A stretch of DNA of 64,000 bases from Psammoneis japonica (Eukaryota): positions 186,001 to 250,000 of the forward strand of contig QPGO01000050.1 in NCBI GenBank assembly GCA_008632985.1, read 5' to 3'. Positions 608 through 42,700 of this stretch are shown here, in pieces. The notes beneath the pieces were generated by a model. That model saw only the letters and a list, made by a program, of their open reading frames with translations, ran no database searches and had not been told where the DNA came from. Within the stretch, counting starts at the first letter, position 1. Every line of letters begins with the position of its first letter. The position numbers and the translations under genes are program-made.

Positions 608-817
608 GGTAATTGGTACATAATAATCTCTAATCATTTTTTTTTAATGAACTGTACAGGATTCCCACCACCGCCACTAAGCGCTTGTTCGGGGAATGAG
701 ATCAAGCACGTCGGTAATTGGTATATGGTATTCTCTAATCATTGTTTAAAAAAATGAACTGTACAGTATTCACACCACCGCCATTAAGCGCTTGATCGGG
801 GAATGAGATCAAGCACG
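608..817. repeat. Tandem duplication, ~105-bp period, covering the MCM 3' end and 3' flank
   Basis: ggtaattgg...atgaactgtacag...cggggaatgagatcaagcacg occurs at 608-710 and again at 713-817. Confidence 0.9.
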
Positions 818-3171: not shown

Positions 3172-3454
3172 GGTGAAAGCAAAAACGATTGCAAGATTCT
3201 TTTTCTTTGTTTTGTGCCGAGTGGCTGCAATGCTGCAAGCTCGTCGCCATTTTTGGGGTTCTCATTTTCTCTTCGGAGAATCTTTCTCATGCGCGAGCTA
3301 TTTTTACGAGTTCCAAAACTCGGGAGGCGGCAAGACTGAAATCGCCACAAAAAGGGCGGGCGGGCGGTGGGCGGCGTTACGGCGTTGGGCTTGTTTGATG
3401 TTGTTATTCTTCATGCTTCAGATAGTTCTCCGTACGAGTAGAGGAACAAGAACC
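3172..3454. promoter_or_regulatory. Putative bidirectional promoter between MCM and the ankyrin gene
   Basis: 283-bp head-to-head spacer containing GGGCGG repeats at ~3353-3375; function is inferred from the arrangement only. Confidence 0.45.
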
Positions 3455-7302: not shown

Positions 7303-8400
7303 TGCAGTCAAAGCTGGAAAGTGCAAGTGTGCTGTCATTCATGATCAAGCAGAGAACAAATGCTGTCCTCCAGCTCAGCACAAAAACATGCCACCAGAAC
7401 TTTGCAAAAAGCTTTGCTCCTCACTCCATGGCACATGTGGGGACATGGGCAAGGACAAGTCATCTAAGTCTGGCAAGCCCAATGATGCATGAAGGATTTG
7501 CACAAGCTGGCCAAGATGATGGCTGCAGCTTTCGCTGCCAAGGTTGACAGACAGGCAGGTGCAATGTGAGCAGCAAACCCAATGAGGAAGAACCCACAAA
7601 GCCACCAGCAACAAAGCAGCACAGTTGCAGCACATTTGCTCTGATTCTCAGCACATTTCAAAGCACAAGAAAAAGGGACAATGCTCATCCTTGGGCTCCA
7701 ACAGGACATTTCATCTCAGCTCACTCCAAACAAGTTGTCTCAGCCAGACAATGATGTGTCTGAGGCAGCACAGATTGAGTTGCAAACTGAGATGGATGGC
7801 CATGCTGACACAAGTGTGCTGGGAAAGCATTCCATGATTGTGCTTGATCATTGGCATGCAGTCAAAGCTGAAAAGTGCAAGTGTGCAGTCATTCACAATG
7901 ACCAAGTGGAGGACAAATGCTGTCCTCCAGCTCAGCACAAAAACATGCCACCAGAATTTTGCAAAAAGCTTTGCTCCTCACTCCATGGCACATGTGGGGA
8001 CATGGGCAAGGACAAGTCATCTGAGTCTGGCAAGCCCAATGATGCATCAAGGATTTGCACAAGCTGGCCAACATGATGGCTCTGCAGCTTTTGCTGCCAA
8101 GGTTGACAGACAGGCAGATGCAATCTGAGCAGCAAACCCAATGTGGAAGAACCCACAAAGCCACCAGCAACAAAGCAGCACAGTCACAGCAACTTTGCTC
8201 TGATTTTTGGCACTTTTCAAAGCACAAGAAAAAGGAACAATGCTCATCCTTGGGCTCCAACAGGACATTTCATCTCACTTTGCTCCAAATGTGTTGTCTC
8301 AGACAATGTGTCTGAGGCAGCACACAGATTGAGCTGCAAACTGAGATGGATGGCTGTGCTGACACAAGTGTGCTGTGAAAGCATTCCATGGTTGTGCTTT
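7303..8400. repeat. Direct tandem repeat, 2 copies, ~554-bp period
   Basis: tgcagtcaaagctg...tgtcctccagctcagcacaaaaacatgccaccagaa starts at 7303 and 7857. Confidence 0.92.
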
Positions 8401-11400: not shown

Positions 11401-14400
11401 CAATTCATTTTGTTGTGAACCAGCATGACTGACAAAGGCAGGACACCTGGCTTCAGGGAGGCTGACTGCTGCCAATGTCTAAAACTCACAACCATTTCTT
11501 CAACCTCATTTCTTTTCTCAGCGATGTTGTTGACCACATGAACCTCCTCAAGCTGCCATCCAAACAGTCTTGTTTGATTCTGCAAGAAGATCAACTGATC
11601 CTTGAGAAGAAATGTGTGTTCTCAACAAACCAGTGCAATGCAGAGTGTCAGGACAAGTCTGCTGTGGGGATCAAGATCCAAGTCATGCTGCAGATGTGAC
11701 TCTCTTGTCTCTGGTGAGACAGAAGCCAATGTTGAGGTGAGTTTTGAGTGCTTGCACTTGCAGATCCATTCTGGCATGTGTCCGATGCAGTTGGCTCCCA
11801 ACAGCTCAAGCATCTGGTGCATGCAATCATGATCTGTTGCCTTGAGCAGCAACCAGCCATTGACACTGCAGGTGAAGTCCTTTTGAAGTGTGTGCCTCAG
11901 CAAATGCAACTTGAAAGTGTGAGGACAGTTGCATTGCCGCGAATTGGTTTGCATCTCCTGGCAAGGCAGAATTCACTTCTGCATGTTCCAGGTGTTGGCT
12001 TGGTCCATTTTCCAACAGAGGGGCTGTGGGTGCACCAGACACCATCAGTGCACTTGTTGTCAATGATTTGCAGTGCACTTGCCACATGAAGTTTGTTGTC
12101 TTTGTCAAGAACCACCACCAGGTTGTTTGGCTGAGCTGTTGTGTCCACAAGCACAAACACCCAGAAATTTGCACCTCCAGAACCAAGATGTGCTGTGGAG
12201 CACAAACAAACAGGCAGCAGCATGTGCCCTGGTGCCACAACTTCTTCTGGGGTCTTTAACGCAAATTGCAGGTCAGACTTGTCTCCACTGTTGGGTGGCA
12301 GTGTGAACTCAACAAGGGCATCCCCCCTGGAGAGACCAACAAAACCACCGAGTCTTGCCAAAGCATCATCAAACAGCCAAATGGCTGTCTTTTCAGCACA
12401 TGTCAGGGTCAACATTAAAAAAGGGAATCACTGCACAAATGTGATTGCAGACGGCTTGGGGGCAGATGGTGGGACGAGACCTGGGAAACTTGATTGGCTT
12501 CCCGATGTTGAGAGAAATGGGCAGTCCTGGATCAGTGTTCAACATCATGAATCTGTTGGAGCTGCTGGATGGAATGCTGTCCAAGATGAAGGTTTACAAT
12601 GTCTTCAGATTGCTGGGATGAGACTCCATTTTGACCAGCTTTCAATGCCAGCCAGTCCATCAAATCTTGTGCTGAGCCACATGATTCATCTGGCACAGCT
12701 TTTTGGCACAGGGTGCAACCAGTTTTGTTTGGTTGCTTGCATGAAGCGTGCTGGCCCTCAGGGCATGTTTCACCCCTTTCTGGCTTTTTAATTGAAGTCA
12801 CTCTAGTGCCGCCACACACAGCACATGTTGAGAGGACTGAACAGCAGTTGGTCGGCAAGACTGCAGTTTGGGTCGGACTTGCTTTCTGGTGGTCAATTCA
12901 TGATGACAACTGTAATTTGCTGCAAGCAAGAAAGCCTGACTTTGCAAAAAACTCATCTTTCAAGTCTTCCATGTCCTTCCACTGCTTCATTGGAGAGCTG
13001 GCAGAGCAGACTTCAAACACGATGAAGAGGCGTTCAATCGACCATCCTGAAACCTGCACAATGTGGGACAACCACATTGTGACATCTTCAAGGAAGACAT
13101 GTTTGTGCTCCATCTTTAAAAGCTCAATGCTCATGAAAATTGCAGCATCAATGATGGACGTTCCTGCTGCCCCACACTGCCAGGTGGTGACCTCTGGATG
13201 ATGATTGAACGGGCCTTCTTGGTCATCTGAATCCACAACTTCTGCTTCTGGAATCCAACAGGATGTTTCAAAACACTGTTGCTGATGCCCCTGTGGCAAA
13301 GCTCTGGGAGCAACAAAAACATTGGAGCCAAGGAGGGGACCAACTGGGACCCTGCTCAACTGCTGCTGGCCCGCTTGTGGATGCCATGGATGGCTCTGGA
13401 GTTGAAGACAATGATGACGAAGCTGAAAAAGTGCCCTGATGTTGAGAGATGCCAGCGGAGACAAATCCTCTTTGTTTCCCATCTCCATCACTTTGAGCAC
13501 AGATTTGAGAATGCCTTTGCCATCTGTTGTTGGCTGACCTCTTGGGGGCTTCCCATCTGGAATCGCAGCATGTGAGGGAGGCGCAACATTGTTTGGCAGC
13601 ACCACTTCAGCATGAGTTGGTGGCATGGCATCAGCCACATTGCCTGCATCATGACAATGTGGCTGTGCATGGGGATGGCTCAAGACATTGCCAACCATTC
13701 ATTTTGTGGCACAGACACAACTCAACAGGAGTCATTTGAAAATGTCACAAGAGTCACAATTGGCATTTTGCACAAGGAAAAATGCCAAATCGTGTGGAAA
13801 TGTGCACAATGTCATGCGAGAGGGTGATCAGAGCTAGTGACTTTTTGGGAACTCAATTGACATGTCATCTGACCAAAGGCATTTTGATTTGCATGGTGAA
13901 GAGCAACACCTTTGGTCAGACAACATTTCAATTGATTTCCTGAGAAGTTGACATTCGAGTGCGGATGGGTGGACAGACTGAAAACAATTGTTTCTGGTGC
14001 TCTTCTGCACAATTTCCACGCAATGACTCTGAGAGCCACAATGATTCCCACCGTCCTTGCCCAAAATTTTGACTTTGCGCAGTGATGCCATCTGATCAAG
14101 ATCTGCGCGCACACTGCTCAAGTCCTGGACATGTTTGATTGTCCATCCATGGCGCCCAATTGACAGATGAACAAATCAAGCCTCACACGTGAGTTCCTCA
14201 GTTGCTCAATCTGGACCCTGCCATTCATGATGGTGGTGGCAATGATGAGCCCCCCCTCCCTCTGACTGTGCATGACAGAGTGGTGCAGCACCACAAGGTT
14301 CATCAGAAGCAGAAGCAGTTCTGGCAACTTGTGGTGTGGGCTTGGGAAGAGCAGGCAGCACTGCCAAGATCTCTGGGTTGGTCAACTCCGTGTCAGGCAG

Positions 14401-14565
14401 GAATCAGTGGAGTCCAGTCCATGCTGGCAGTTGCCACCACAGGCACTGACTTTGACATTGGCGTTCCAGCTGCACCTCTGACAGGAGCTTTTGCAACCAA
14501 ATTGTCAATCATTCACACAGCTGAGTTGATGGACTTTCAGCTTCCACCAACACACACAACCCTCA

Positions 14566-15678
14566 GCTGTTCAATGCCAAGAAGGCGCACTTGGAGCAGG
14601 CACTGGCAGTGCTGTTTTGGAAGGTAAAATCTCTAGAGAATTGACAGCATGCACTTGGAGTTGATGCCAGAGTGTCTGTGTTATCCTGCTGTTGCATCAA
14701 ATTGGCATTTTTTTTGCAGTTGGGCCAAAAGAAGCAACTTGACAGAGCAAACTCTAGAGGAGGTTTTTGTGAACAAAAAATGTGCAGAAGCAGTGCCATG
14801 ATGTGTGGCCCAAAAAGAACAACACGTTGTTTCCTCGTGGACAACTGTCACTTGCTTGAGGAAGTGTGAAATAAAATGCATTTTAAAGTTGCAGCATGTG
14901 TGTTTTGTGCATGTCAAACAAACATTTTCAACCCTCATCTGTTCATCATGTTTATGATCGCTGTCCCAAGGGGACCATCTCCTGGTTGTTGGTGTGCCAC
15001 AGTCAAGTGGTGAGCACTGTTTTTGAGTGTGATGGGAGTGATGATTTTGCAATGGATTTGCAATCACTTCACTGTGGAATTTGGAAGTTTTTTCAGTGTG
15101 TTTGCAACTCAGAAGAGATGCAGAATCCCACCAGAGTGGAGGTGACTGAGCACCTGGATCCAGTGGAACAGAACCTGTGGCACACAATGCTGGGATGTCA
15201 TTCAGGATGGGTGCAATCCAGCAGATTTCTTGAGTGAGAATGAACTTTCAATGTTGGTGAATGACATGGACTGCTCATGGGAGGACACTGAAGTGCATCT
15301 CATGGCAGAGCTGGAACAGAATTGGGAGCTGTTCGATGCTGAGGCACACCTGAAGCAGGCACTGGCAGTGCTGTTTTGGAAGGTGAAATCCCTGGAGAAT
15401 TGACAGCGTGCACTTGGAATTGGTGCCAGAGCATGATCCATGTCATCCTGCCATTGCATCAAATTGGCATTTTACACCGCAGTTGGGCCAAAAGAAGCAA
15501 TTCAATGGAGTGAACTCCAGAGGAGATTTTTGTGAACAAAAAACATGCAGAAGCAGCGCCATGATGTGGGGCCCAAAATGAATGACACGGTGTTTCCTCA
15601 TGGACAATCATCGCTTGCCGGAGGAAGTGTGAAACTTCATGTGTTTTGTGCATGTCAAACAAACATTTTCAACCCTCA
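14566..15678. repeat. Direct repeat, 2 copies of ~350-370 bp (14566-14936 and 15328-15678)
   Basis: Both copies share gcaggcactggcagtgctgttttggaagg and catgtcaaacaaacattttcaaccctca. Confidence 0.9.
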
Positions 15679-18600
15679 GAGATCATGCAGAGACTGGCAA
15701 GGCACCCAGCCGGCTGCAGCCAATGCCCAATGCACTGCAATCTGAGATCCGCAATGGCACACCTGCCGCAGGGACATTTGTGTCCCTGACCTGCTGGCAA
15801 ATGGCCATGCAACAAATTCACGCAGGAGCTCTGCTGCAACAACATGCTGCAGCCTGTTGGCTCTGTTGGATCTGAGTTTGCTTGTGACAAAAAACAATGA
15901 CAAGACATGAACTCACAAGCAACACAGCATTTCCTTTTTTTCAAGAAACAGCACCAGAAAATGAGCAGCAGTCAATGCTGCACAGACCAAGGTGGCATTT
16001 GCACAAATGCACAGTTTTTGCAAGATGCGCCAAACAAGCTTCTCAGAGTTCATTTGGGAGAGCTTCAAGGTCAGTTGCGACAGCTGCTGAGCCCTGCAAT
16101 GTCCATTGAAGGTTGGGTTTGCAATGCCATGACAACAAGATTGTCAAAACATGCAACACATCACTGGAGTCTTTCTGACTCCTCAAAACAGAATTCCACC
16201 ACAACCAGTGCTCACTTGAAAAAGGTTTTTGGATGGTCAAAGAAGCATGCCAAGCAATGTTGACATGATTCAGCCTTGCATTTGTCTTCTGTGTTTGTCT
16301 TGTGCACAAATGCAAAGTTGCACTTTGCTGAGCTGCCGGTGCACCTGGACATGGCACAAAGGAAAAGTGAGTGCTGGTGCTGCCAGAGTGCACACAAAGT
16401 CTTTCATCTGGCAAGAAATGCGGTGCATTGGTGTGAAGAACAATGCAGAAAAGGAGAAAGTTGGTGCCAGTGTGCTGGCTGTGGGTCAAGACCAAGTTGA
16501 CAAGCAGGGCTCATCAGCTTTGCAGAAAAATGCACTCAGCAACAGAAAGCATGCTGTGGGGGAAGCCAGCCAAAAAATGAAACAAACAAACAAACAAACA
16601 AACAAATGAGAAATGAAGGAAAAATGCATTGTGTGCAAAGTCTCAATGATGTCCTCCTTGGCAGTGGAGTCAAAGTCAAGTTGCAAGGATGGCAGCAACC
16701 ACAATGCAAGCACCATTGTGACACTGGTGCACTCCACACTTTTTGATTTGAACCCAACTTTTCAGTTGGCTGTTGTGGTGCCATGAGATGAATTCCTTGT
16801 GACTGTGTTGGTTGCCTTGACAACCAAAAGAAATCACTCTGCTCAGTCACTCTGCTTGGCAGCATCAATTCCTGTGCAGCAGCAACCACACAGCGTGCTC
16901 CTGCAAAGGAGTTGCACAAATTGTGGCCAACCTTTGAGGAGCTGGGTGATGCCAAGTCACTCTCAAACATGCACCAGCAACACCAAGAAGGTTTGGGTGG
17001 TGCACAAATCTGTGCTGCATGTTTTGACTGACCAAGTTGCTGCACAAACCATTGCCAGCCATGCTGCATCATTCTGTGATTCAGAGGAAGGGGTTTTGTC
17101 TGCTTTGGTGGGACGAACTTCCCCACAAAGCACAGAAAATGCTGTGTGGAAATGTGGATCTACCAACAAAGGTCAAACCTGTCACTTTGCAAAGGATCAT
17201 GTTTGAGTCATGCTTCAAGGGCTGCAGGATGGAGGAGGAGTTTGAGAAAGGGGCTCTTCTTTGAATGTCCAAAAGCACTGCACCTGGATCCAGAACATGC
17301 CCCATGCTTTGTGTGGAGTGCACTGCCAGAGTCAAGCTCTTGAAAGCAACCAAACAAGTGTGGGACATTTCCCCCTGAGGCTTCAGGATGCTCTTTTCTC
17401 TTTTTTCACAATCTGGGCTCCTTCTTCTTTGCCTTGGGAATCTCAATTTTGCAAACAACAGACACTTGCCACTCAGCCACAGGCCAACTTTTTTGCCTCA
17501 CATTTGTTGCTTCAAGGACACCAACTCAACCACTGAGCATCATTGGCAGGCAGTGCAGGGCCATGGCTTGAGTCAAAGATCTGTCTGCCACACACATGAG
17601 AGCAATGCAATGGCTGGTTGTTGACCAAATTGTGCAACACGGCACAGCCATTTTTGTTGCACCTTCTTGAGATGCCAAAGCTGCCAGAGGGCTCCAAGCA
17701 AATGCTTCAATCTAACTGCCATGAAATTTCATTGTTGGGTTCAATGGTGGTCACTTCTTTTCCAGCTGGCCGCTGGCAGGCATGCTCTTTCCAAACAACT
17801 TGCGGCTGCTGTTGGTTTCCACAGTCTTGTTGTTGACAGCTCAACGTGAGATGCAATGTTGTCTCTGAACTAAAAGTCGCCAGCATGATGAGGAGCACTT
17901 CTTGCAACAAAAACGTGAGGGTGTCATTCTTTCCTCCCAACAAGAAGTGTGCAGAGGGGCCACTCATGGGCAAGTTGGTGTCAGAAAATGACAACACATT
18001 TCCCTCCAGCAACAGGAGTTTCTTGTCAAGGATGCCAAACAAGAACTTGAGCAGCTCTTGAAAGACCACAAAGAGTCCCAAGCCAAGCAGGCACATTTTA
18101 AGAAACAAGATCATGATTCCAAGGTCCGGTGAAACATCAGTGGGACATGGAGAATGCAGCTGATGCAATGGGCCGGCAACCCAAAGGAGTGTTAAACCTG
18201 CAGGTGATCAGACATGTTGAGATGCTCAATGAGCAACTCAAGTGGTCTGAACCACCTTGCAACCTTCACAAAAAGGCTGCTCTTTGGGCATCAAGCAGGC
18301 CATCTCAGCCCATGATGTCAACAGGTGTTCAGCAGTGTGCATTTAAAAAGAAAAGAAAGCAGAGGCTGGCCCTCATGTGGCTCCTGCTTGAACAACCATT
18401 GCACTAAAAAGTGCGCTGGTTGGCAACAGGTTGCTGCCGCATTGGATGTTTACAAGCATTCAGTGCACATGCAAGAAGCAAGTTTGCTGGCAATTGTGGT
18501 GCATCTCTGTCAGAGCCATGGACTGCTTTGACATGCAATTGTCATTTTGCCTCAAACTGACTTCCAAAGACACACACAATCAAGTGCACAGAAAAAAAAT

Positions 18601-20884
18601 CAAGGACCCAAGCCTTCAGGTCTGCGCGGCAATTGTGTGTGGATGACATTCAAAGACTCAACTCCAGCAGATCTGACTTGCAGTGAGAACAAGAAGATCC
18701 ACTCTCTTTCAGCCACAAACTGACAAAACCATGGCAATCAAGAGAGTGATGTGTTTCAAAGAGTTGAGCTGTGATTTTTTTGTGATCCATGCAACATTGA
18801 GCAAACTGATTCTGAACCTGCACTGCCCCTGATTGACATTTCAAATTTTGAAAATGTGGCAGGAAAACCAACGGTTTGTCGCTGTCACATTTTGTGTGCT
18901 TTGCAATTCAAACCCCAATGATGTCAGTCAGATTTCAGAACAGGGTGAGCTCCAAACTCCATGGTTTTCTTCCCTCCACCACACTGTGAATGCCCACCAT
19001 GCACTTCAACACAAACAACAAGACATGCAATGCAACAATCATGCCATCTGCCATTGCTTCCAAGAGGAAAAGAAACAATGCGGTGCATTGTGTGTTGGAA
19101 GCACAACAAGCAAACACATCACACACCAACAAAGAGAGGACTCACGTTCTCTGAAACTAAAGTGCTCAGAAGTGGCAGCATGGAGTGGGGCCACACAGAG
19201 ACTGCAGAAGGTTGCATGCAAGGTCTGCAGGACTGTTTGCCAACAACACAATGGTTGTTGTCATTTGCTGCCAAGTTGGGCACTGCATCACTTGGTCAAA
19301 CAACAACGTTGACTTTAAAGAGTGTGAAGCTTGAAAGCATTGTGGGTGCAAGACATTCAATCAAATTGTTGCTGTTTTTTGTCTGGCTTCAGAGAATGCC
19401 AAGGTGGACTGCTCAGTGTGTTGCTCAGAGAAGAGTCAGTTTCTGTGAGAGAAAAGGGATGAGCAGTTCTTGAGACATTGGACCAGTGCCAGATTTTCAG
19501 CGGCAGTGCAATTCTGCATGAGAAAAACGAATGTTGCTGATGACTGCAACCACGCGACAATGGAGCAAGTGGAAGTGCAATGTGCCAAAACACTGTCCCT
19601 GCAAAATGGTCTTGGAACACATCAAAGATTGCTTTGGGACAATTCAAGCAGGGTGCTGTGATGGTTGGTCAAAGCTCATGAGGGATGCAGGCACCTCAGT
19701 CATCTCCAAGTTCAGTGTCTGCATGGTGTTTGGTGTCAGAATCTACAGTTTTGTCAGCAGGGAGCCCGCAGCAGCTCAGGTTGACAACTCGCAGAGTGTT
19801 GCACATTTTGAAATCAAGGTGCACAGGTGTTGAGGTGAAACCAAAGAAATCACAAGCGCAAGAGGGCGCCGCGGCTGCAAACTGTCTGCCAAAAGCACAG
19901 GAAGCTTGTGCCATGAGTTGGAGAATCATCATCATGAGCCACAAGAAGAAAGACATGGCCTGACTGCAAAACTGCTCTGCAATGTTCACTTCTTGTGCTT
20001 TTGCAAAATGCAAAGGAAAACCAGTTGTGTCTGTCAATCTTGATTTGATCAAGGCAAGGGTGACAAGCTGGTGAGTCACGAATGGAAAGGTGTGACAAAA
20101 AAACCAAGCGCTGGCATTTTTTGCAGCCACCTTCAAGAAGCAACTGAAACTCAACTGCAGCACAGCCCCTCTGCCTTGCGCACTCTGAAAAGTTGAGCCC
20201 AGAAATGAAGGCATTTTTGCCACTGTGAAAGCAGTGGGAAAGTTGTCCAGTTGCCCAGTTCCTGAGGTGCAGTCCACCAGGGCACACCAACATTCATGCC
20301 AAGCACCTCAACTTGTTGCACCCTTGAGAGCCTGCCTTTTTAATTGCCTCTTGGAAAGAGACTGTTTTGAAATTGGCTTTTGCAAAAGCAAGAAAAAGCA
20401 CTCTTCAAAGAATTCAAAAGAACAAGTCTGAGTCTGAAACTCACATTTGTCCTGGCACTTTGTGTCCACCACAGCCCTTGGAGAGCCCAACAATCCTGAG
20501 AGTGTGGAAAGTGGAAATTTGTTTCAATGTAAGAGACTCATGCTTTTGGTTGGAGTTTTGAGTTCAGGACACAAAGCTTTGCTTGTTGGAGTGGTGTTGC
20601 CTGGGACACACGGCATTTTGTCGCCAATTGCGACATTCCCATAAATGAATTGGACGATTTGTCGTGAAAAACGCCCTTTGAGACAAATTTCAACCGTTGG
20701 CGATAAATAAGACAAAATCATCATTTAATTGGCGATGGCGTGTCCTAAACACACACGTTATATCAACTACAGTGCTATATGATGAATTTAACTTTCGGCG
20801 AAGACTGTACTTATAAATTAATGTTTTGGCGATTTTGTCGTACGTACGACAAATTTTGTCGGACGTACGACAAATTTTGTCGTA

Positions 20885-27678: not shown

Positions 27679-27807
27679 NNNNNNNNNNNNNNNNNNNNNN
27701 NNNNNNNNNNNNNNNNNNNNNNNNNNNNNNNNNNNNNNNNNNNNNNNNNNNNNNNNNNNNNNNNNNNNNNNNNNNNNNNNNNNNNNNNNNNNNNNNNNNN
27801 NNNNNNN

Positions 27808-29940: not shown

Positions 29941-31832
29941 ATGACAAAGAGGCAGTGCGTTGTCAGCCAATGTCAACAACGCCACTGCTTCTGCCTCCTT
30001 GCTCTCTGTGACATTTGGAGAGAGCAGATTGCGGCATCATGGTTGTTGGGATCGTGGCACAGAAATGGTGGGTGCGGGTGAGCTGAGATGCTTCAGAAAG
30101 ATGCGGTGACATGCGACATTGTGTTGCTCAAAGGTGAGCTTCAAAGTGAGCTTCGAAGAAACTTCGAAGCATCTCTTTAATGCCGCCAGCTCTCTCTAGA
30201 GCAGCTGGCACCCAAAATCTAGTCTAGCCACCAGCTGGAGCCAGCCACCACTGGCAGCTGGAGCAGCCACCACTCTGCTCCTAGAGCAGAGAGCTGGTGC
30301 TGCAGCAGACAGCATGAACAGACACCGTCAATGTCAAACGTACAGTGCCGTGTGCCCAAGAACGTGCGTGCATGTCCAAAACACGTAGAAGTGCCGTGTG
30401 TGCGAACCCACAGGTGCGCATCGCATGGTTGGGGACACGGAAGCAATGCCGGATGCGATCAGTGCGGCAGCATGGCACTGCAGAAGAGAGGCGCAGGCGA
30501 AGAACAGAAGCAGTCCAATCATCATCCCTCACCACCATCACATCAAAACCCAATTGAAGAGACAGTTGCTGATGCGATTGCATTCACACTGGATTTGGCA
30601 CGACCATTGCAGCCAGTGCAATGTCTCGTCGCCCAGCTGCAGAGCCTCCCGATGATGCTGACGCGAACAATGGACGATCTGTGTGTCAACGAGCGTCGAC
30701 ACCTCCTCCAGGTCTAATTGCCACGGAAGATGCGCCCGGTGATCTTTTTCCCATTGGAAAACTGGCAGCAAGTCCACTTGAAGCTCGAGGTGAAGTCAGC
30801 AACGGCTCTCGGTTGATCTCAGGCTTAGAGACATTTGTTGCCGACTTGCACCGCACCCCCCGGTGGTTCATTGAACTCAGCGATGTCGATGACACAGAGG
30901 CAAGCCCTCGTTGTGGTGTCATGCTGGTGGTGACTCCAATCACAACAAACCCAGAGGACTGCACCCTCACCAACATGACAACGGACCAAGAGGGCCGTGT
31001 CCTTGTGGTGAACGTGACCGTCTGTCCACGCCGCATCAGTGGCAATGCTCCCCAATGGTTTGGAGATGAACTGGAGAGAACTTCTTCAGCAATCCCACAA
31101 GGCGACAGATGTCGGGACAGGACCGGCACCTTTCAACCTTCCAGAGTCAGCAAAGACTGCTGGCAGACTGCCTGGTCCAATCAAATTGGCAGGCACATCT
31201 CTGCTGATGCAAACATTTGTGCAACAATGGAAGATTTGACCAAGAGGCGTGGTTGGGTTCGCTCAGATGGCACTCGCATTTGATTGACAAATTTGAACAA
31301 CATGCGTCCCCACGATCGAAATGGCAGCAACCAATGGTTCATGTTGATGCAGCTCTGGACCAACACCAGAAACCTTGTGACAAATGTCTGACAGAAACCT
31401 GCAGCAGGACCAAACCATGGAACAGAGTTTGTTGGCCAGTCATTTCCGAGTCTTGGTTTCTGGCTAAATCCAGGTCTCTTCTTGCATGTGTCCCAAAGTT
31501 TGTGTCCCTCCACTCTGGCCAGCTAGTCACTCTAGAGCAGCCAGCTAGAGAGAGCAGCTAGCCCCTTCTCGTTGCGATGTGATTTCATGTAAAAAAGAGG
31601 AAAAAGCCCAAGTTTCTCGGAAAAGTGGTTGACAATGCAGCCGCACGAATAAAAGGCAGTTGTCGCGCGCAATTTCGCAGGCTGTGCGCGCGAAGTTCGA
31701 ATTGATTCTGGTGCCGTGTCCAGCATGATGGCGGGTTTTTGTTGTCTTCCACTGGGCGCAGTGTCAACAGTCTTTGTGGATGGTCAGTTGGTGTGCTGTC
31801 GGGTGGGTGGAGGTCGATTGAATCGGGGTCCT

Positions 31833-34400
31833 TCAATGTTTGTAAAGGGACAGACCTGCGCCATCTTCCCACTGGGGTCGCCTGGAGAGCTGATCTGAGA
31901 GGCAGGAACACAGGATCCCCTGAGGCAACGGTGGGTCACCCAAACTGTGGTGATGCTCATCCTTGCATTGACACAGCTGCATGCTTCAGAACATGGCTTT
32001 TGCCACTTGTCTGACAGTTTCGATGCCATCTTCTTGCGGAGCATCACCTTGGCTTCCTTGCTGAACAGCCCGTCGCATGACACAACGAAGGGCATGACAT
32101 GACGGTGTTGTTCAAGACAGGGCTTGAGGTGCTTACGCTGTTTTCATGTTCGTGGCTTGCCAGGACTTCTTCTGGTGTTTTGGACAGGTGTGACTTCACG
32201 TCTGTGTCAGGGATTCGAACATCCATCACCATGTCTGTCCTTCTGTCCCAAAATCTCATGCCGAGAAGGTCTCCACGATCGCCATCGTTGGACTTGTTGG
32301 AGTTGGTGTTTCCTGGGGAACCATTGGGGGTGCTTGAGCTTCCATTGTTGCAACCAGTGGGGTTGATTGGGGGTCCGTCGCGTGTGTGGGAAGGTTTGCA
32401 AGCCTTGCCCATCAGGTCACCCACCAGGTTGTCACGCACTTCATCATGTCGTGAGATGACTGGGCCGCCCTTCTTGCACTGAAGAGCATGATTCATGGTG
32501 AATTTGCATCCACATTCATCACAGTGCTCTGGGAGGTCTGGCGGAGCACCGCCATGCCACAAGAAGAGTGCATCACGGAGCTCTTGGCATGAGAGTTCTG
32601 TGCCGTTCAGTGTCGAAGGGTGTGCTGACAGCCACGCTCCAGTCTTGGTGCTGCGCTTGACAGCTCTGGCCTGAAGGTTGGGCAGGTTCCTGAGGATCCT
32701 TTTGAGGGTCTCTCCATGTGCTTTGACTTTTCCATCAGCTGCTTCCTGTTTCACTTCACGCATGGTGTCCTTGTGCACTGCGGAGGAGAGCTGGGAGCAG
32801 ATGCGGAGTGAGATGATCACGTGGGAGCACGTGAGAGCACTTGCTTCACAGTTGTGAGCTGTGGACTCAGTTGGACAAGGGATGGACAGTCACGAAAATT
32901 TGATTGGGAGGGTGGACAGGGCCAATCTCAGGTTGTCGTTGGCTGGGGTCTTGCCCATCAGCGCCGGCAGAAAATTGCACTGTGTCGCGTGTTCTGCGTC
33001 GGCGAACAATTCTCCGCAGTCCTTTGCCACATGTTGGGCACATTGCCACTGAGGTTGCAGAGACTTTTGCAGACTAGCACAGGCGGTCTGAGGGTGGCAA
33101 ATTACAATCTTGGCGAGTCCCTGGATGACCGAGGTCCATGACTTGGCTTTTTCGCCCAGCCAACGGTCGCGTGCGTCCGTCTCTCCGACGAAGCCTCTGA
33201 GGCAGCAGCTGCCAGACTTGACAGCAAAGCCCAGATCTCCAAAGTGTGCTCCAGCATTTTCCAGGTTGTGTTCTGGGACTGCCAGGATGTTCTTGGAGTT
33301 GTCGGCAAGGCAGCATCCGTGTGTTTGGGGCCTTTGGCTTGGAGAGTGAGGAAAAAATCCCGCAGGACGTTGAATTTCCCAGCTGCTGCGGAATTGTCGG
33401 CATGCCAAGGGGTGAATGCATCTTTAAAATGTTCATTCATTTCATAGACTGGTGGAAGAAGTCCCAGTCCATGTGCCACCACACCAAGAAGCAGATCACC
33501 CTGTGTGACACCTTCTTTGCTGAGCAAAATGAAGGCGGTTCCGAAGCTTCCGCGGATGATCAGGACACTCCAATGCTTGTGGCTGTTGAAGGTGAACCTT
33601 GCACCAGATGGCCAAAGGTGCCTCACATTGCACAGCATCAAGATCCAGTTCTCTTTGTTGAACCCATTGGAGGCATCGACAAAAAGAAATCGGCAGTCAT
33701 CTTCAAATTTGTGTTGCTCCCAGAGCATGCTCATCGTGTGAATGGCGCCCTTGATGCCTGCTTCCAGTCCAGCACACAGCTGGTCTGTCCCACAAGCTTC
33801 CTTGGCTTCTGCTCCAGCAACTGGATGAATGGCTTTGGCAGTGGCTTGTTGCCACACCTCCCCTGTGCCGACCAGATGTGCGCCCGGGTTTTTGTTTTGC
33901 ACGACAAGTCGTTTTGCCATGATTTGCGGCACACGGCCCACAGGGGGTGACTCGTTTGCTGGCCAGTTTGCAAAGTTGCACAATGCTTCTTTAAGCAACC
34001 CACTGGCTTTTCTGCAATGGAGAAGCCATTCTGATGCTGTGTCAGCATCAGATCTGCCAAGTCCTGTGCCCCCGGACAGTCTGCGCTTGACGGTCTTGAT
34101 GGTTCCATTGGTGACAAGTGCACCCTGAAGCTCAGGCAACTCACTGAACTTGTGAAAATGGTCTTCATCCGGGATCCTCTGGTTTGGATGTTTCTTCTGA
34201 AGAATCTCAAACACTGAGTCATTGGTTTTTTTGTTGATGTCATCTGGTGAGAGGATTCCACCTTTCTCGCATTCGGAGATGCACCCACAACCACTCCTCG
34301 CAGGTTCCCTTGGAGCACCGTTCTATTGAATGTCTTGGTGCACTGCTCAGACATCTCCTCCCTTTGAATGGTCTTCAGGTCAGTTTCTGTTGCACATGGA
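31833..34400 (-). mobile_element. Decayed non-LTR retrotransposon with RT, CCHC knuckle and restriction-like endonuclease (CRE-like clade), 5'-truncated
   Basis: RT motifs FVDASNGFN, SKEGVTQGD and WHADN (from WYADD); C-x2-C...HALQC and RHDEVRD; RLE motifs RGDLL...DVRIPDTD and PFVVSCDG; C-terminus PQWEDGAGLSLYKH*. Confidence 0.85.
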
Positions 34401-36690
34401 CATTTGTCAAAACCTCAAAAATGTTCCAACGGAGTTCAAAACTGACTTTTGCTGTGGCAATGCAGATTTTTGGACCTTCAAAGATTTGTCTTCTTTTTTT
34501 AACAAGAATTTTACTTTCACAATCAGATGAAGACAATTGATTCTGCACACAAGCACAAATGTTTTATTCTGCCACTTTGCTTGCTGTTGTCAGGTTGGTT
34601 GGCACTGCCATGTGTCCTTTTGCTCTGGAGTTTGGAAATTCAGCGGCCCAACTGCTCCTGTTGGGGACAAGGCAACACAAGCCACACCACAACATCAACC
34701 TTGCAATTCCCAGCCACAGTTCTCAAAGTGTTGCCTGGGGTTGCCAGAGACCAATGGCACCTTCACCAGCTTGCTGTTGCTGGTTTGTTGGGGCCATCAT
34801 GGTGTCCTTTTGAATTTGGAAAGTCACATCTGCTCCTGTCAGGAACAAGGTGACATGGGGTCACAAAACCAAATGATCAACCTTGCAATGCTCAAACATG
34901 GTTTGCACCATCATGGCAGGGTCCTTTCATTCTGGAGCCAGGAGTTTGAAGTGTGCTTCTGGCTGGGACAACATGATGGGGTGTTGCAACCGTGCAACAC
35001 TGGCATTGTGCTGAGCACAATTCACAAGTGTTGGTGCCTGGGGTCCACCAGAGACTGCACCAGAGTGACCTCAGCCTGCAGGTGCTTGTTGGGTTGGTTT
35101 GTGCAGGCGCGGGGCTGCTCACAGTCTGAAGTTGGAAAGCTCAACAAGTCTGCCCCAGCCTGCAGACAAGGAGATGACATGGGACCACAACAGAGCAAGG
35201 AGGAACATTGACAGCAGGAGGCACTGCAGCTGCAGTGCCTCCACATCTCTGGGGGCTGCTGGGCTGGCTCTGTGCAGGCACCACACATGCAGCACCACCT
35301 CTGTGCTGACCCAACCAACCTCTTGCTCAACGAGCTCCCTGTCCACAATGAACATCTGTGCAACCAGCTCCACAACCTCTTTTGACCTCCTGCCTGCAGA
35401 TTCAACTGCGACGAGAGTGCAGCAGCAACAAAGGTTGTTGCGCACATGTGAATCAGCTCTGCAAAGATCAGCTGGCACATCAGCAGCCCCACAGACACAA
35501 ACAAACAAACTGCATGTGCCAGCACAAACAATGTGCAAATTCTTCAAACACAGATGCACCAAATGTGATTGAAACAATGTTCAACATCCAGCTGGTGCAC
35601 AAATGAGAGCTCACCACCAGCAACAAAACACACACTGTCAGCAAAGACCCAGTCATGAAATGACAAATTTTCAAGTTGATTCAAATGACCCAAAGCATTT
35701 TGAAACTAGTGTGATGAAAGGCTTCAAGAAGATGACCACTTGCAAAATGATGATGCAAGCAATGATTGACAGGCTGGCTGGGTTCTTGGCTGGGTGTCAT
35801 GGGAGGGTGCTGGGGTGCTGATGTCACAAGAGAGAGCTTCTCCTCCCATGCTGGACAGAGCTTTGCCAGGCAACAAATCCTTGGCTGACCCCACCTTTGT
35901 CAATGCTGACACACCCGCCAATGAGGCCAGCTGTTTGCACTTCTGTCTCCAGCTGCTTTTCCTCCAGTGTCATCTCCAACACAAAGCCCAGCCATCCTGA
36001 CACCACCTCCTCCTGTGCTGAAGAATCCTTCCCCATTTCTTCATCAAGAAATGCCACATCCCAGTCCCCCTGACACCAAGATGGCAGCTGGTTTGTCAAC
36101 CCCACCTTGGTGGAATGATGTCCTGACTTGAACCTGGCCATGTGATCTCCACCAGGGTTGTTGAGGGTGGTGCGCCATCCAACTTCTTCCTGTTGCTGGA
36201 GCCAAGGATGACATTGTGATGAAATCAGAAGTGGGCAACACTCTTCATGGAACACTTCTTCTGTTGCAATGTGCCAAGGGCACATTGACAGTTGACAATG
36301 CTTGGAAGTTTTTTGTCCTCTTGAGGCCACCTTCATTGCCTCCATCTGAGTTGCTGGGTTGCACGGATGCCTCTGGGAAACCACTGTTGCAATGGAGAGA
36401 ATCCATCAGATCATCACTGTGACCCTGAAAAAGGGAAAGGAGTGGGGGTGTCACACACAAATCAACTGTGTGCCAGTGCCTCCCCACAACTGAAATCTCT
36501 GCAACATGGGACAAGGAAATGCATGCCCTGCATGATGCTGCTTGGCCGCAAAGTTGCCAATGGATGCTTGGCTCTTCTGCTGTTGGCTCATGGACATGCG
36601 TGCACAAGCACAATGCAAAATGACAGCAGTGGCAAGCAAAAGGAAATCATGACCACATCATTGAACTCAATCATCAAAAGTGGCAAGACG

Positions 36691-37277
36691 GTGACGGACA
36701 CGAGCAAATGATCTTGTTGGAACTGGTCTGCATGCCACATCATCATCACTGTCATGTGTTGGATGAGGGTCTCAGCAGTGCACACATGTCAAGCATTGGC
36801 AAACAAGGAGACACTGGATGTGTTCGATTTACATTTCTTTCGTTTCCTCATCCGCCGCCTTGGTATCTTCGACAATGAGTTTTCCCGATTCTGTGTTCCC
36901 TTTTCCTTCTAGCTGTTGGTTGTGCTCCTCTTGCACTACAAGGGCGGCATTTCTCACCAGTTCGTAACGGTTGGCTACACCCAGAGCAGCCGCCGAGGCT
37001 TGAGAATCACCAGGCACAACGTCAGTAGTCGATGCATGCCTCGATTGCAAGAAGAACCCTGGATCCAAACCAGCCGCGGCGGCACGAGCTTGGTGTGCAA
37101 TCAAAACATCTTTTGACGACAGTGCTCCATTTTCTTGTCCATTGGAAGATGCAACTCGCCGCAAAGCCGTCAGCAGTTGCTGTGAAAGGTGGACCGTTCG
37201 GAAGCTTCAAAACAAACCCGTTCCATGCGATTGAACTTACTCAGCACTTGAGCCATTGCTCGCCCGTCGGCTGTTGC
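36691..37277 (-). pseudogene. TAF11-like pseudogene, copy 1 (internal ~350-bp deletion, TpA-mutated)
   Basis: Aligns to 37328-37800 and then to 38156-38249. Confidence 0.7.
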
Positions 37278-37327
37278 TTCTTGTGGAACGATAATTAAGT
37301 TTCTTCTGAGTTGGTTCGAGCCGCCCC

Positions 37328-38252
37328 GTGACGGACACGAGCGAATGATCTTGTTAGAACTAGTCTACGTACCATATCATCACCATCATGTGTTGGATGT
37401 GGGTCTTAGCAGTACACAAATATCAAGCATTGGCAAACAAGGAGATAATAGATATGTTCGATTTATATTTCTTTCGTTTCCTCATCCGCCGCCTTGGTAT
37501 CTTCGACAATGAGTTTTCCCGATTCTGTGTTCCCTTTTCCTTCTAGCTGTTGGTTGTACTCCTGTTGCACTACAAGGGCGGCATTTCTCACCAGTTTGTA
37601 ACGGTTGACTACACCCAGAGCCGCCGCCGAGGCTTGAGAATTACCAGCCACAACGTTAGTAGTCGATGCATTGCCTCGATTGCAAGAAGAACCCTGGATC
37701 CAAACCAGCCGCGGCAAGAGCTTGGTGTGGAATCAAAATATCTTTTGACGGTAGTGCTCCATTTTCTTGTCCATTGGAAGATGCAACTCGACGCGGCGCC
37801 GTCACCAGTCACTGTGCATATGCTTTCGCCAGCGTGGACACAACATCAGTGATCTCTTCAGATTGACCAGGCGCAACCATATCTTCAAGGGAGCGCTTTG
37901 GTCGACCACCGTTTCGTCGTCAATTCTCACTATTAGATAATGAACTAGTGTCACTACTGTTGTGACCATTGCTGGCAGTCCCATCGCGGATATACGGACA
38001 TCGCTGTGGCAAAGCGTTGTTGGCATTCCGGGCTTCACCGCCAATTCCCAAGGTCGAGGAGCCCAGGAGCTGTCGAGTCTTTTCTCCACCAGCACAATCT
38101 CTTTCGTGTGATACAGCAAGACAGTGCGCAACAAAAGATGATATAGCATCACCGCGAAAGGTGGACGGTTTGAAAGCTTCAAAACGAACCCGTTCCATGC
38201 GATTAAACGTACTCAGCACCTGAGCCATTGCTTGCCCATCGGCTGTTGCCAT
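37328..38252 (-). pseudogene. TAF11-like (histone-fold TFIID subunit) pseudogene, copy 2
   Basis: VLSTFNRMERVRFEAFK.STF and EEITDVVSTLAKAYAQ*LVT resemble the TAF11 histone fold; in-frame TGA stops at ~37920 and ~37810, plus a later frameshift relative to copy 1. Confidence 0.6.
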
Positions 38253-39049
38253 GCTGAATATCGATACAAGGTGTAGAGTGGAGATGAATCATCAGTACCA
38301 CCAAAGATTAAAGTTTTAGGCAAGGCATGATATTCCCTCTCAATACTTACCATACTCTTGAAGACGAGGAAGTTTTCTCTTCGTTGCTGTTCTTGTTTGT
38401 CTTTGCCGATTTCGACTTTTTCTGCTTCTTTTTCGTTTTTGTGGGCTTGGTAGGTTAAGCTCCCTTTTCCTCCGGTTCTATGGATTGAAGCAACAGATTT
38501 TTTTAGGATGTAAGAGAAAGTGAGGCGACGTGTAAGCACAATCAACCACGTTGGAAGTTGGAAAATACCTGCTTCCAACTGTCGCCGCCTCTGACCTTGG
38601 CCGTTTGATTGAGCGATGATCCATCTTGAGGCTTCAAACAAAATACTCGTCTAATGTATTCCTTTCAACTCACACTTTACAATTGTTGTAGAGTGCCGTA
38701 TCTCTAGCCAGAAACAGCACCAACAAGCAAGCAAACAAGGGAATACACTAAAGTCTCTTGAAGCAACAGCAAGAGCGGCGCAACGACCTTGTCTCCGCCC
38801 GCCCTTCGCTGCTCGGTCCTCGAGCTACTCTCCATCGTTTTGTTTTGATTTTTTTTTGACACCTGTGGACAAACGGGACACTGCGTAGCCAGGGTGTATT
38901 TTAGTACCTAGTGATTCGTGGACAAGCGTGCCAAGGCGTGCCAAGGCGTGCCAACGTGTACCAAGTGCTTCACGAACGATGGGGAGTGATAAATCCCGCG
39001 AAAATCCGAGCGAAACAGGTGCTGAACCGCATGAAAACCCCAAGCCCTG

Positions 39050-42000
39050 TGTCACGAGAATGACAGAAGTGCTGTAGGAATGCGGTAACCCCACCGGAAT
39101 CTGAGGGTCGTTTCCACCATTTGAAGTTTTCTTGTCGAGTGCTCCTGTGGATTCATCCAAGAGCAGAACTGCTGGTTTCAACGACAGTGCAATTGCAAGT
39201 GTGAGGCATGTTGTGCTTCCTCCTCTCCCAGAGAGGTTGATCCAAGGCGAGTGGACAGAAGCTCCGCTGGAGGCAATGCTGGTCGGGAGAAAGAGTGCTG
39301 TCTTTCTCATCAGCTTTGTAACCTTGCACTTCATTGAAATGCTCTCTTGGAGTTCTGTCGAGCGTTGGTTGCCATTGTTTGCAGCCTCATCCGTGCTGTT
39401 CTTGGGCTGATTCGCTGCGATGCCGTCAAGAGTCAAGAAACTCAAAATCATGGTGCATGATTGGTTCAATGTCACACATGCCAACAAGATCAAGCAGGAG
39501 GAGGACAAGGGGTCAACAAAAAGATTGGCATTGTTGGAGATGATGAGAATGGAAACGCTGAGCTCAAAAATGACTCCTTCCTCAAGGTGAAAGAGGCTGA
39601 CGATGAAGGCACGCCCTTGATGCGTTCGAGCTCGGTTGCAACTCAAAGGGCTGGGAACAAGAGCTTGAGTCTCTTGGAAAGGATGTGGAGAGCGTCCAGC
39701 AAACTGTCACGCATGTGTGTCATTCTGGATGAAACAACTCAAGCTGCCGCAGCTGGGATGCTGCCGGTTTCTTCATGGGCGTTGCGGGTGTGTTTGTCCG
39801 GCATGCACTCTTTTGGGGAGAAGCCCAGCTTCAGACCCTCACAGACAAGGGCAGAACACCGCTTCCTGTGCTTGGGAAGAAAGGGAACCAACCACTGATC
39901 TGATTGCCTTTGGCCATTGTTTGATTGATTCTCAAGATGCGGCTGCAATTGAAGCAGGTGTCAGCATTGGCTGTGCAGCTTTCATTTCAGCTGCAAAAAT
40001 GATCGTTGTCGGCCACAGCTTGGACACTGGCACAGTTGGAGGGCACGTTTGGGGGCCACTCTTTGTCAGTGTGTGGCTGCTCACCTCTTTGTGGGTGCAG
40101 ACAGAATGTTGTTGCATTGGACCGGCATTGAGCAGTGCCAGCCGCCATTCAAAAGAGGGGCTCAGAATGGATGTTGTCTCATGTTTCTGGCTTTGGAGAA
40201 TTGAAGGAGTTTCATCCTTCTTTGTTTCATGGAGCATGCCAACAAGCTGAATCTGTGAAACACCCACCATCTCTTCTGAAAGCGGGTTGGCACAGTTGAC
40301 AAGAACTCAGTTGCGACATTGGAAATGGCTCTGGTTTGGCATTGAGCAACGACGACATTGAGCGGTCCTCCATTGGAACTGGAAATCGGCGTGGACACGA
40401 GTTTGCATGATGACCAAGATTCTTGACCCAAACACCATGTTTGGACACAAAAAAACTTGCACCAGAAAATACAAAGGAGAACCAGCAACACAGATGCGTG
40501 CCATTGCTGTGGCTTGGGATGTTGCCATGACCAGGACATTCCATTCAATGACACCAGATTCCTTGGAAATGCTCAAACTGGTTGCAGCTGGACCTTTGGA
40601 CTTTAGACAAATGTTGTGGCCAGTTTGAGAAAGTGACAAATGAGCTCAAGGTCCAGTGCAAGTGTGACAACAATGCAGTGCAAACAAGCAACTGGAGCAC
40701 TGGACGAAAAAGCAATTGTGCGAAAGATGAGTCACCCCTTTGTCATGGGTTCACTCAATTCGCACAAGGACAAGCAGTGCCTCCAGATGCTGGTCAATCT
40801 CATGCACGTGAATTTGACGGCATTCTTGAGGATTGGGTTGTTGTTCATGCCTTGGCAGCAATTGAGGGGCTGAGCTGCATGCATTGTCAAGTCATTGTTG
40901 ACTTGGGAAGGGAAAATGTGATGCTGGACAGTGGACAGTGATGCTCCAATGTTGATCTTGGTCAATCTGTGTGTTCACCTTGCCATGGCATCATGCATGT
41001 CTTGGTGATGCTGGGTTTCATTAAAGCTCATGGAGGATCGGATTCTGCACCAATGGATTGCAACCGACACGACGGCCAAGTCGCTCATGACAGCGTGTGC
41101 TGAGGCCTGTTGTCAACAGACATTCTCAGGAAGCGCCGTCAGAGGAAAAGTGGTGGAGGAATTGAGAGGGACATGTTGGGCTGTTGGAGTTGAGAGGGAG
41201 AGTCAGTGTTTGGCAGTTGGGTCAAGGAGAGCATTCCACACTTGCCTGTCACCTTGTCCAACTTTTGCCAAAATCTGTTCTTTCACAGCTGCCTGCATCC
41301 CATCCACTCTTGAGCTCAACAGGGGCACTTTTGCACATGAGCAGGCTCAACTCTTGTTTGCCTTGTCTTGTGCATCTGTCCAGTTTGATGCAAAGGTGTG
41401 TGCAATTCATCACAATGCACTTCATTCTCACAACACTTCATTGGTGACCAAATCTGACTCTTGTCTTTGTGCTTCCCGCACAAGCAGGGGAAACGTCTCT
41501 GTTACGACATGCATGGCCAGGTTGTTTGAGGGCCTTGAGTGATGGTCCTTGCTTGGATGCGCTGGACCGACTCTCGCGGTGATTCAGATGCATCAAAATG
41601 TCATCTTGGACGCCGTTGCCTCCATGCCAGAAGGATTCATCCAACTTTTGTGGAGACTCGACTTGTTCCCTCTTTCAGCTGCACCCAACCTTGAGTGTCT
41701 TTCACCCCGATGCCAAAGAGGAGAATTTCATGCATTGCAGCCCCAAGCCAAGGACAGCTGTTGCCAAAAGACTTGGCAGCAGCAGGGCCTGTGGTGTTGG
41801 GCTTTTTGAAGTGCCACAGACAAGCCGCATTTGCTCACCTTGGAGAAGAGCACCATGCTCGTTGTCTAGATTGCACCTGCAAGAATGGTCACTTGCATCC
41901 TGTCGAAGCCTCAGAAAAGTTTCAAATCAAGTTGCTCGAAGCACGGGGCGCAGTTGGCAACACGGTGATTCGCCAAGCCTGCCTTGCATCATCATGCTGA

Positions 42001-42700
42001 ACATCACCAGGCTGCGGACGTGGTCCTTCAAAAGGCTCGCACTGTCGCCAACAATTCTCAGTTTGCGCCCGGCATGAAGCTGGGCTTCATTTGCACACAC
42101 AGCAGTTGGATCATGGATGCGGGGCATGAAGTCCTCTTAACTCGGCAGCTCGATCATCATCAAAAGTAGAGCGGAGTTGCAATGGGGGAAAAGAAGCAGC
42201 TTGGGACGACAAGAAATCAAGCTGCGATGCGGTGAATGTCGTCAAAGCTTCCCAAGCTGCCGGCACTGTTAGAGCGGCAATCGGGGCTGTGTCTTCAAGT
42301 TTCAATCCATCCCACAAAACCCGGAAAAGGGCAACATTGACGAGACGTTGCATGTCCTCTACCCAGTTTGACTCATCTCACGATTGTGCACTTCATCGAC
42401 ATTGATTCCAAAACCACAGACAATTCTGTTGGGGAGCTCATTGATGATTGGAAGGAGGTGTCGGTCCCGGGGAATGCCGTTGCTGTGAGTCTGCTCGCGG
42501 GTTCCTTAATTTGAAAAAGGACAAGATTGACTTTGCAGGCAGAAAACCACCGGCATCTACCGGCATTGAGAAGCTTCCATTTGGTTAGAGCTCACAGCAT
42601 TTCTTCGTTGTCGATGCAGGAAACGGAAACATTGATTTGTACAACATGAACCGTTGATGCTTCATAAAATGCAAAGATGGTCCATTGTCCATTGTTGAGC
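39050..42700. other. TpA-depleted block 3 with CpG largely retained
   Basis: Roughly 15-20 TA in 3.6 kb while CG remains frequent. Confidence 0.8.
39120..39250 (-). pseudogene. ABC ATPase gene fragment
   Basis: W.NLSG (degenerate signature), LAIALSLKPAVLLLDESTGALD (Walker B and D-loop); no Walker A found. Confidence 0.6.

Follow-up and report, generated by a model that had tools for sequence, protein, structure and literature searches.

In the 64,000-nucleotide window of Psammoneis japonica DNA analysed here (positions 186001 to 250000 of contig QPGO01000050.1, in an assembly of 91 Mb), the segment at 30330-34300 has lost nearly all of its TA dinucleotides and still holds many CG, whereas the block at 6001-20000 (block 1) has lost both. 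A preliminary description had proposed that TpA loss is uncoupled from CpG loss and that the two act as separate mutational clocks. We find an ordered pattern of two processes, and it is highly likely that TA is lost first and CG later. The losses are nested rather than uncoupled, and TA loss behaves as a switch at each locus rather than as a clock.

The segment comprises two different pieces of DNA, 30330-31632 and a dead retrotransposon at 31633-34387 (Table 1). It contains 158 CG (CpG observed-to-expected ratio, o/e, 0.567) and 18 TA (TpA o/e 0.083), compared with 119 CG (0.151) and 42 TA (0.044) in block 1 and with CpG o/e of 0.98-1.05 and TpA o/e of 0.57-0.69 in three gene-bearing stretches of the window. 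CG:GC is 158:291 in the segment and 119:1014 in block 1 (Fisher P=1e-28), and TA:AT is 18:195 and 42:799 (P=0.067), so the two regions differ in CG and hardly in TA. The contrast first described is therefore real, and CpG in the segment is not as low as in block 1. The two spots cited as examples of it, 30601-30720 (10 CG, 1 TA) and 32940-33200 (19 CG, 2 TA), are indeed CG-rich and TA-poor, but they are the CG-richest parts of a segment whose CpG is overall already about half lost. Stripped blocks in the window lie at about 6-20, 22-36.7, 39-42.4, 52-54 and 59-62 kb, with TpA o/e near 0.04 and with CA and TG raised. An edge effect was considered as the source of the high CpG and rejected, as CpG o/e is flat (0.35-0.45) from 250 bases inward of the edges of stripped domains and the segment sits inside its stripped block.

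The TA-poor, CG-retaining state is not an assembly artefact, because contigs of run X1, which is possibly from the same sample as the assembly, match the assembly over the segment in pieces of up to 2.8 kb; once 11 of 18 differences traced to paralogue contigs had been set aside, 6,285 bases contained 7 substitutions. Four of the seven fall at CpG, one at TpA and two elsewhere, small numbers that hint that both kinds of site still vary. At the CpG differences (30912, 33471, 33933 and 34339) X1 always reads CG, which could reflect allelic difference or biased base calling where sites are methylated.

The relation between the two losses was examined across the genome in 38 stretches of 10 kb at arbitrary positions (two more of a planned 40 proved nonexistent), which gave 753 windows of 500 bases. 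TpA o/e is below 0.2 in 363 of these windows. By class, 209 are low in both dinucleotides, 154 are TA-low and CG-high, 312 are high in both, 78 are intermediate and none is TA-high and CG-low. The TA-stripped, CG-retaining state is common in this genome, with 29% of TA-poor windows holding as much CpG as the segment. The coupling is one-way, in that CpG decays only where TA has been stripped (none of the 312 TA-rich windows is CpG-poor), and the proposed uncoupling fails on this point. Since CpG loss was never seen without TpA loss, both processes act on the same targeted DNA. This targeting is by place and not by copy number, because many multicopy elements are intact and because a duplicate that is stripped in the window is intact at two other loci.

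Comparison of paralogues indicates that TA>TG/CA arises after insertion, on both strands and separately in each copy. In the retrotransposon alignment, TA, TG and CA are mixed in the same columns among copies, and because TG and CA share columns each copy must have changed independently. That TA was the state lost follows from intact paralogues and from conserved tyrosines that now read as Cys or His. The latter is seen at 158 of 185 copy-positions in 28 retrotransposon copies, compared with a median of 0 and a maximum of 2 of 10-12 positions in 120 outside homologues, which are open-frame proteins biased to active copies and say little on TA loss in other species. Sites were scored in 25 of 29 aligned copies (L006, L022, L025 and L026 were left out, of which all except the never-scored L006 entered the later branch-length analysis; L016 was dropped for its overlap with L015). 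By subfamily, these copies keep 7-12% of TA-type sites and 47-70% of CpG sites, where background transitions amount to 0.7-1.9% and background transversions to 0.2-1.1%, and the copy in the segment, scored against its subfamily, keeps 7/126 and 93/211, respectively. Two further families, D and E, each include intact, TA-stripped and doubly stripped copies. In block 1, the duplicate at 8606-13274 keeps 5/125 TA and 24/202 CG of the copy on contig C16 (three non-overlapping aligned pieces summed).

The change is narrowly specified. A>G proceeds at 0.644 after T, as opposed to 0.014 after A, 0.011 after C and 0.017 after G (about 45-fold), roughly 95% of changes at TA are transitions (transversions 0.03), and TG>TA is rare (0.005) next to TA>TG. 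The following base also matters, as TAY changed at 156/192 sites and TAR at 63/148 (P=2e-13), and off-target A>G likewise favours a 3' pyrimidine (31/1263 versus 8/1525, P=1e-5). TA was kept at 0/102 RTAY, 14/116 mixed and 21/68 YTAR sites; among the 18 TA left in the segment, 10 are YTAR and one is RTAY, compared with 52 and 113 in genic DNA. CG>TG/CA reaches 0.229, against 0.005-0.016 in other G>A contexts.

Several comparisons bear out the earlier proposal that TA goes faster and sooner. Non-reference copies of families D and E keep less TA than CG in 24 of 25 cases, and the two losses do not scale 1:1 across copies. Between the sister copies L057 and L058, 31 TA, 4 CG and 5 other sites differ in 1.7 kb, with 25/31 TA and 3/64 CG affected in their central kilobase. 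L057 itself (contig C223), a young family E copy, is TA-stripped in this central kilobase and nearly intact at both ends. The duplicate at 36691-37184 has lost 17/24 TA and 3/23 CG (P=9e-5), and its TA loss is densest beside the stripped block (the first 11 sites all gone, then 6 of 13). From these early cases, the TA rate is estimated at 6-35 times the CG rate. Prior CpG decay is not needed, as had been supposed: within context classes TA loss has no relation to CpG distance or density (533 sites, P 0.3-0.7), and the sister copies are nearly without CG loss.

The best explanation of the whole, which we hold to be probable though far from secure, is that the same silenced DNA is subject to two mutation processes, one after the other. 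In the first, an insert or duplicate that lands in a targeted domain, or is taken into one, undergoes TA>TG/CA on both strands, for the most part while background change is still below 0.5-1%, such that RTAY sites vanish and YTAR sites linger. The second, CG>TG/CA, is initially some 6-35 times slower and becomes substantial only in DNA that the first has also hit. The segment is a mid-stage locus, with TA saturated and about 36-44% of CpG left. For the first process, a TadA/ADAT-like activity brought to silenced chromatin may deaminate adenine in DNA enzymatically, to hypoxanthine that is then read as G, a mechanism that we judge as likely as not. The second may be deamination of 5-methylcytosine (5mC) placed by a DNMT5-type enzyme, and we regard a 5mC origin of the CpG loss as very probable. 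The T-A-Y spectrum together with the off-target AY bias suggests that one enzyme with a T-A-Y pocket fits better than polymerase eta or ADAR, and the one-sided mutation of duplicates argues against pairing of the kind found in repeat-induced point mutation (RIP) and for chromatin targeting. More tentatively, and as something slightly less likely than not, we raise the possibility that a natural DNA adenine deaminase serves as a genome-wide defence, switched on per locus in silenced chromatin. It would erase TA, and tyrosine codons with it, from nearly half of the genome well ahead of 5mC decay. Such a defence would mirror RIP with A-to-G changes and respond to chromatin state instead of homology, and it would be shared with or convergent on that of Bigelowiella. 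If this is true, the TA/CG pair would serve as a two-stage timer for the silencing of each locus.

Candidate enzymes are encoded in the genome. C5-methylase matches number 27. One locus (contig C76:291501-297000, DNMT5b-like) has a weak methylase match beside Tudor and SNF2 matches, and another methylase lies beside a weak chromodomain match on C34. According to the portions of PMC9998398 consulted, DNMT5a methylates transposon CG in Phaeodactylum and DNMT5b has Tudor and SNF2 neighbours. C5 DNA-methylase domains also occur on TA-stripped DNA of contigs C297 and C301 (TpA o/e 0.07-0.11), where they are probably borne by mobile elements that were hit in their turn. Deaminase genes comprise nine PF00383 matches and two separate A_deamin (ADAT1/ADAR-type) loci, on contigs C40 and C79, with no RNA-binding domain in the frames scanned. 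Also on C79, at L170:313-1785, a deaminase domain shares one frame with DIOX_N and a 2OG-Fe(II) oxygenase, an unusual fusion that likely serves purine salvage.

In its strict form, the preliminary description implies two independent constant-rate clocks, with CG content ranking insertion age. Branch lengths were estimated with TA and CG columns masked (L059, L075, L079 and L081 left out; L060 dropped as identical to L059). In line with such clocks, the CG kept falls with background change among the 25 retrotransposon copies (rho -0.81) and with branch length among 49 stripped copies (rho -0.53, with a P value overstated by the kinship of copies), from about 0.7 at a branch of 0.005 to 0.1-0.3 at 0.07. 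However, the former trend is not significant within subfamilies. The block-1 copy of family D (branch 0.066, CG kept 0.10) also ranks as expected beside the retrotransposon (0.021, about 0.43), and it has more transversions (25/708 versus 27/1906, P=0.001); the 8606-13274/C16 pair differs by 0.041-0.048 transversions, compared with 0.026-0.031 between the retrotransposon and its siblings. Judged by these differences, the block-1 pieces at 18140-19187 and 8606-13274 look older than the retrotransposon, which partly supports the age order claimed for the segment and block 1. The same cannot be said of the family E copy at 14936-15628, which breaks the ranking, with transversions indistinguishable from those of the retrotransposon (6/545 versus 27/1906, P=0.68) and less CpG kept (5/35 versus 93/211, P=7e-4). 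This copy, apparently no older yet with more CpG lost, is a warning against a strict CpG clock and not proof, its age resting on some 6-7 changes. As for TA, branch lengths of 11 intact (0.006-0.018) and 7 stripped (0.006-0.026) family D copies are equal (P=0.60), and thus TA stripping is a per-locus switch and not a clock. The nesting of CpG loss within TpA loss also speaks against independence, and we regard two strict clocks as unlikely. CpG content is best read as a record of the time and strength of silencing, and of insertion age only roughly.

As an alternative to adenine deamination, the mutated base could be T, if thymine in RTA were oxidised to 5-hydroxymethyl- or 5-formyluracil and mispaired with G. 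Oxidised thymine does mispair, and TA being palindromic, T>C in RTA accounts for the data no less well than A>G in TAY; a search of the genome for TET/JBP gave no match, and neither did the positive controls of that search. We rate this about as unlikely as the two clocks. Slightly less plausible again is N6-methyladenine (6mA) at TAY in repeats as the adenine equivalent of 5mC at CG, a premutagenic mark whose deamination or miscopying gives G: it would yield the single-dinucleotide, both-strand, locus-bound signature observed, but eukaryotic 6mA occurs mostly at ApT in active genes and not at TpA in repeats. Mismatch repair of deaminated 5mC could instead recruit a polymerase-eta-like enzyme that miscopies nearby TA, which would explain the shared territory of both losses, and according to the sections of PMC4686820 consulted, mismatch repair leads to A>C/G at WA motifs through polymerase eta. 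Such repair is a poor candidate given that AA is hit 45-fold less than TA, that TA changes are nearly all transitions, that TA loss ignores CpG distance and density, and that L057 and L058 lost TA almost without CG. DNA-DNA homology sensing of the RIP type, which would mark duplicates for mutation, accords with loss that is near-saturating, repeat-bound and sharp-edged and with the hit on the duplicate at 36691-37184. It is nevertheless improbable, as the C16 and C144 copies are intact while the window copy at 8606-13274 is stripped, 99%-identical family E copies and 11 family D copies are largely intact, 30330-31632 is stripped with no paralogue found, the direction is opposite to RIP, and the main target in Bigelowiella natans is single-copy in the available sections of a preprint (bioRxiv 10.64898/2026.01.13.699255). 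Finally, all 29 aligned copies are TA-poor, as they would be had the element been so from the start through inherited composition or selection, or through assembly error. This is refuted by TG versus CA at the same sites, the destroyed tyrosines, intact relatives in three other families and the X1 match, and we give it next to no credence.

Other points weigh against successive adenine and 5mC deamination. The deaminase genes resemble common tRNA or salvage enzymes and have no chromatin-reading domain in the scanned frames. Sequence does not distinguish A>G on one strand from T>C on the other, and runs of coordinated change along a strand, such as a processive single-strand deaminase could produce, are not significant (752/1461 versus an expected 728.6+/-15.3, P=0.067). 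No intact copy is found among the 29 aligned retrotransposon copies and 86 TG/CA columns are unpolarised; if about half of these had been CpG, the CpG kept by the copy in the segment would drop to about 36%. Background change is not fully neutral and contains off-target A>G. Moreover, CpG loss is not constant in rate and may include an early burst shared with TA loss, the youngest stripped retrotransposon copies having already lost 23-37% of CpG at branches of 0.003-0.007.

The retrotransposon has at least 47 other matches in the genome at 70-88% identity (40 of 186 candidates scored), in three main subfamilies, and other copies extend more than 1 kb further 5'. Homologue P0002 aligns across 34310-31836 in three frames, homologue P0001 carries Pfam RVT_1, and the named homologues include diatom entries. 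The NDH2 gene of the window scores 0.97 with a cluster in which Bacillariophyta is the most frequent phylum, and both observations point to a diatom-like source. RVT_1 in homologues, 5' truncation and the lack of long terminal repeats (LTRs) place the element among non-LTR retrotransposons of the restriction-like endonuclease type. The zinc-knuckle and endonuclease C-terminal motifs, read by eye, are presumably such, and by motif resemblance the element may be CRE-like. For 30330-31632, a DNA search gave no long paralogue and only three matches of about 130 bases just to its left, and a protein search gave only the self-match, with no Pfam or protein-atlas match; many of its surviving TA sit in short motifs rich in CTAG, near 30187-30290 and 31513-31565. 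No target-site duplication or terminal repeats that would support the proposed order of nesting were found at the two pieces.

Elsewhere in the window, the block at 39000-42400 is in a state like that of the segment (CpG o/e 0.43, TpA o/e 0.04) and includes a weak TLDc match at 41583-42077, possibly a decayed gene copy. The multicopy element at 36689-39047, which has six other copies at 81-86%, is largely TA-intact despite repetition, and one paralogue bears a TAFII28/TAF11-like open reading frame. A gap of 129 N lies within repeat DNA at 27679-27807.

Table 1. Coordinates of features in the window.
Feature	Position	Strand	Remarks
Methylmalonyl-CoA mutase gene	784-3261	-	TA-normal DNA
Ankyrin-repeat gene	3164-4309	+	TA-normal DNA
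Duplicated unclassified non-coding DNA (block-1 comparator)	8606-13274		TA- and CG-normal partners on contigs C16 and C144
Family E copy (block-1 comparator)	14936-15628		2/29 TA and 5/35 CG kept; branch length 0.015
Family D copy (block-1 comparator)	18140-19187		3/29 TA and 5/49 CG kept; branch length 0.066
TA-poor, CG-retaining DNA	30330-31632		CpG o/e 0.64, TpA o/e 0.14
Dead 5'-truncated non-LTR retrotransposon	31633-34387	-	Paralogue alignment; reverse transcriptase, Cys/His zinc-knuckle-like motif, restriction-like-endonuclease-like C-terminus
Frameshifted coding remnant	31836-34310	-	10 conserved Tyr positions read 3 Cys, 4 His, 2 Phe, 1 Val, 0 Tyr
Right neighbour, repeat DNA with ~190-bp internal units	34388-36690		Both steps lost: CpG o/e 0.12, TpA o/e 0.03 over 34301-36800
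Duplicate of 37328-37816 (internal control)	36691-37184		Borders stripped block; partner keeps all 24 TA
NDH2 gene	56845-58104	-	TA-normal DNA

For a TA-specific A:T>G:C process of this strength we found one published precedent, the B. natans preprint of 2026, which concerns two viral inserts of an alga unrelated to this one; no diatom report of TpA loss was found in a literature search of listings and abstract openings that largely left subscription papers outside its coverage. Here, the process marks about half of the sampled DNA and leaves a staged record, and its target rule, sequence preference and order relative to methylation can be read from one genome. Identity- or CpG-based dating of transposons overstates age in this genome, where a background difference below 1% looks like 8-10%. 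Testable genes can be named (ADAT/TadA-like, A_deamin and DNMT5-like), and the readout is cheap.

Among known systems, RIP of ascomycetes resembles the present process in its near-saturating, dinucleotide-specific transitions in repeats, its sharp edges and its slight spread to neighbours. The process is not RIP, which turns CpA into TpA in both members of a duplication, whereas here TpA is removed and partners can stay intact. TadA and ADAT enzymes turn A to inosine and so give A>G, and the tRNA site of TadA/ADAT2 has a 5' U; their natural substrates are tRNA, and DNA activity of the enzymes of this genome is hypothetical. In the part of PMC10661471 consulted, the TadA/ADAT2 target is listed as 5'ACG, in keeping with a 3' pyrimidine, and the ADAR preference as 5'UAG, which does not fit, TAR being disfavoured here. 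The non-canonical AID signature of polymerase eta also links A mutations at TA to C deamination, but a WA motif and A>C are expected from the sections of PMC4686820 consulted, and in this genome AA is almost untouched and some 5% of TA changes are transversions. With the DNMT5-methylated diatom transposons of PMC9998398, whose main text as consulted does not mention "TpA" or "deamination", the segment shares CG>TG/CA confined to repeat domains and a DNMT5b-like locus in the genome.

The closest likeness is to B. natans, in which TpA hypermutation of integrated nucleocytoplasmic large DNA virus (NCLDV) and virophage DNA was measured in mutation-accumulation lines and adenine deamination, with ADAT2, was proposed (Mettrop et al., bioRxiv 10.64898/2026.01.13.699255, available sections). 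In both, TpA>TpG/CpA occurs on both strands as nearly pure transitions, is region-bound and needs no second copy. Inserted DNA is hit and genes are spared, one stripped piece here (8606-13274) being duplicated unclassified non-coding DNA; in B. natans, reverse transcriptase and DDE domains are over-represented among TpA-poor genes. The rate is far above background in both, although the counts for L057 and L058 are relative and not per generation. The state is on or off by line there and by locus here, where loci differ and run X1 and the assembly show one TA difference. Unlike B. natans, the present organism is a diatom-like stramenopile, the targets are transposons and duplicates, and the evidence is comparative; the 363 windows with TpA o/e below 0.2 compare with a Rho of 0.45 in the NCLDV insert, and the TAY preference and later CpG decay are not reported in the sections of the preprint consulted. 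By its signature, the process appears to work like that of B. natans. The TpA process is a real and striking variant of one described once before, to which this genome adds the one-way nesting of the losses, the switch-like timing, the counter-example to a CpG clock, the AY bias of off-target changes and the absence of an effect of nearby CpG.

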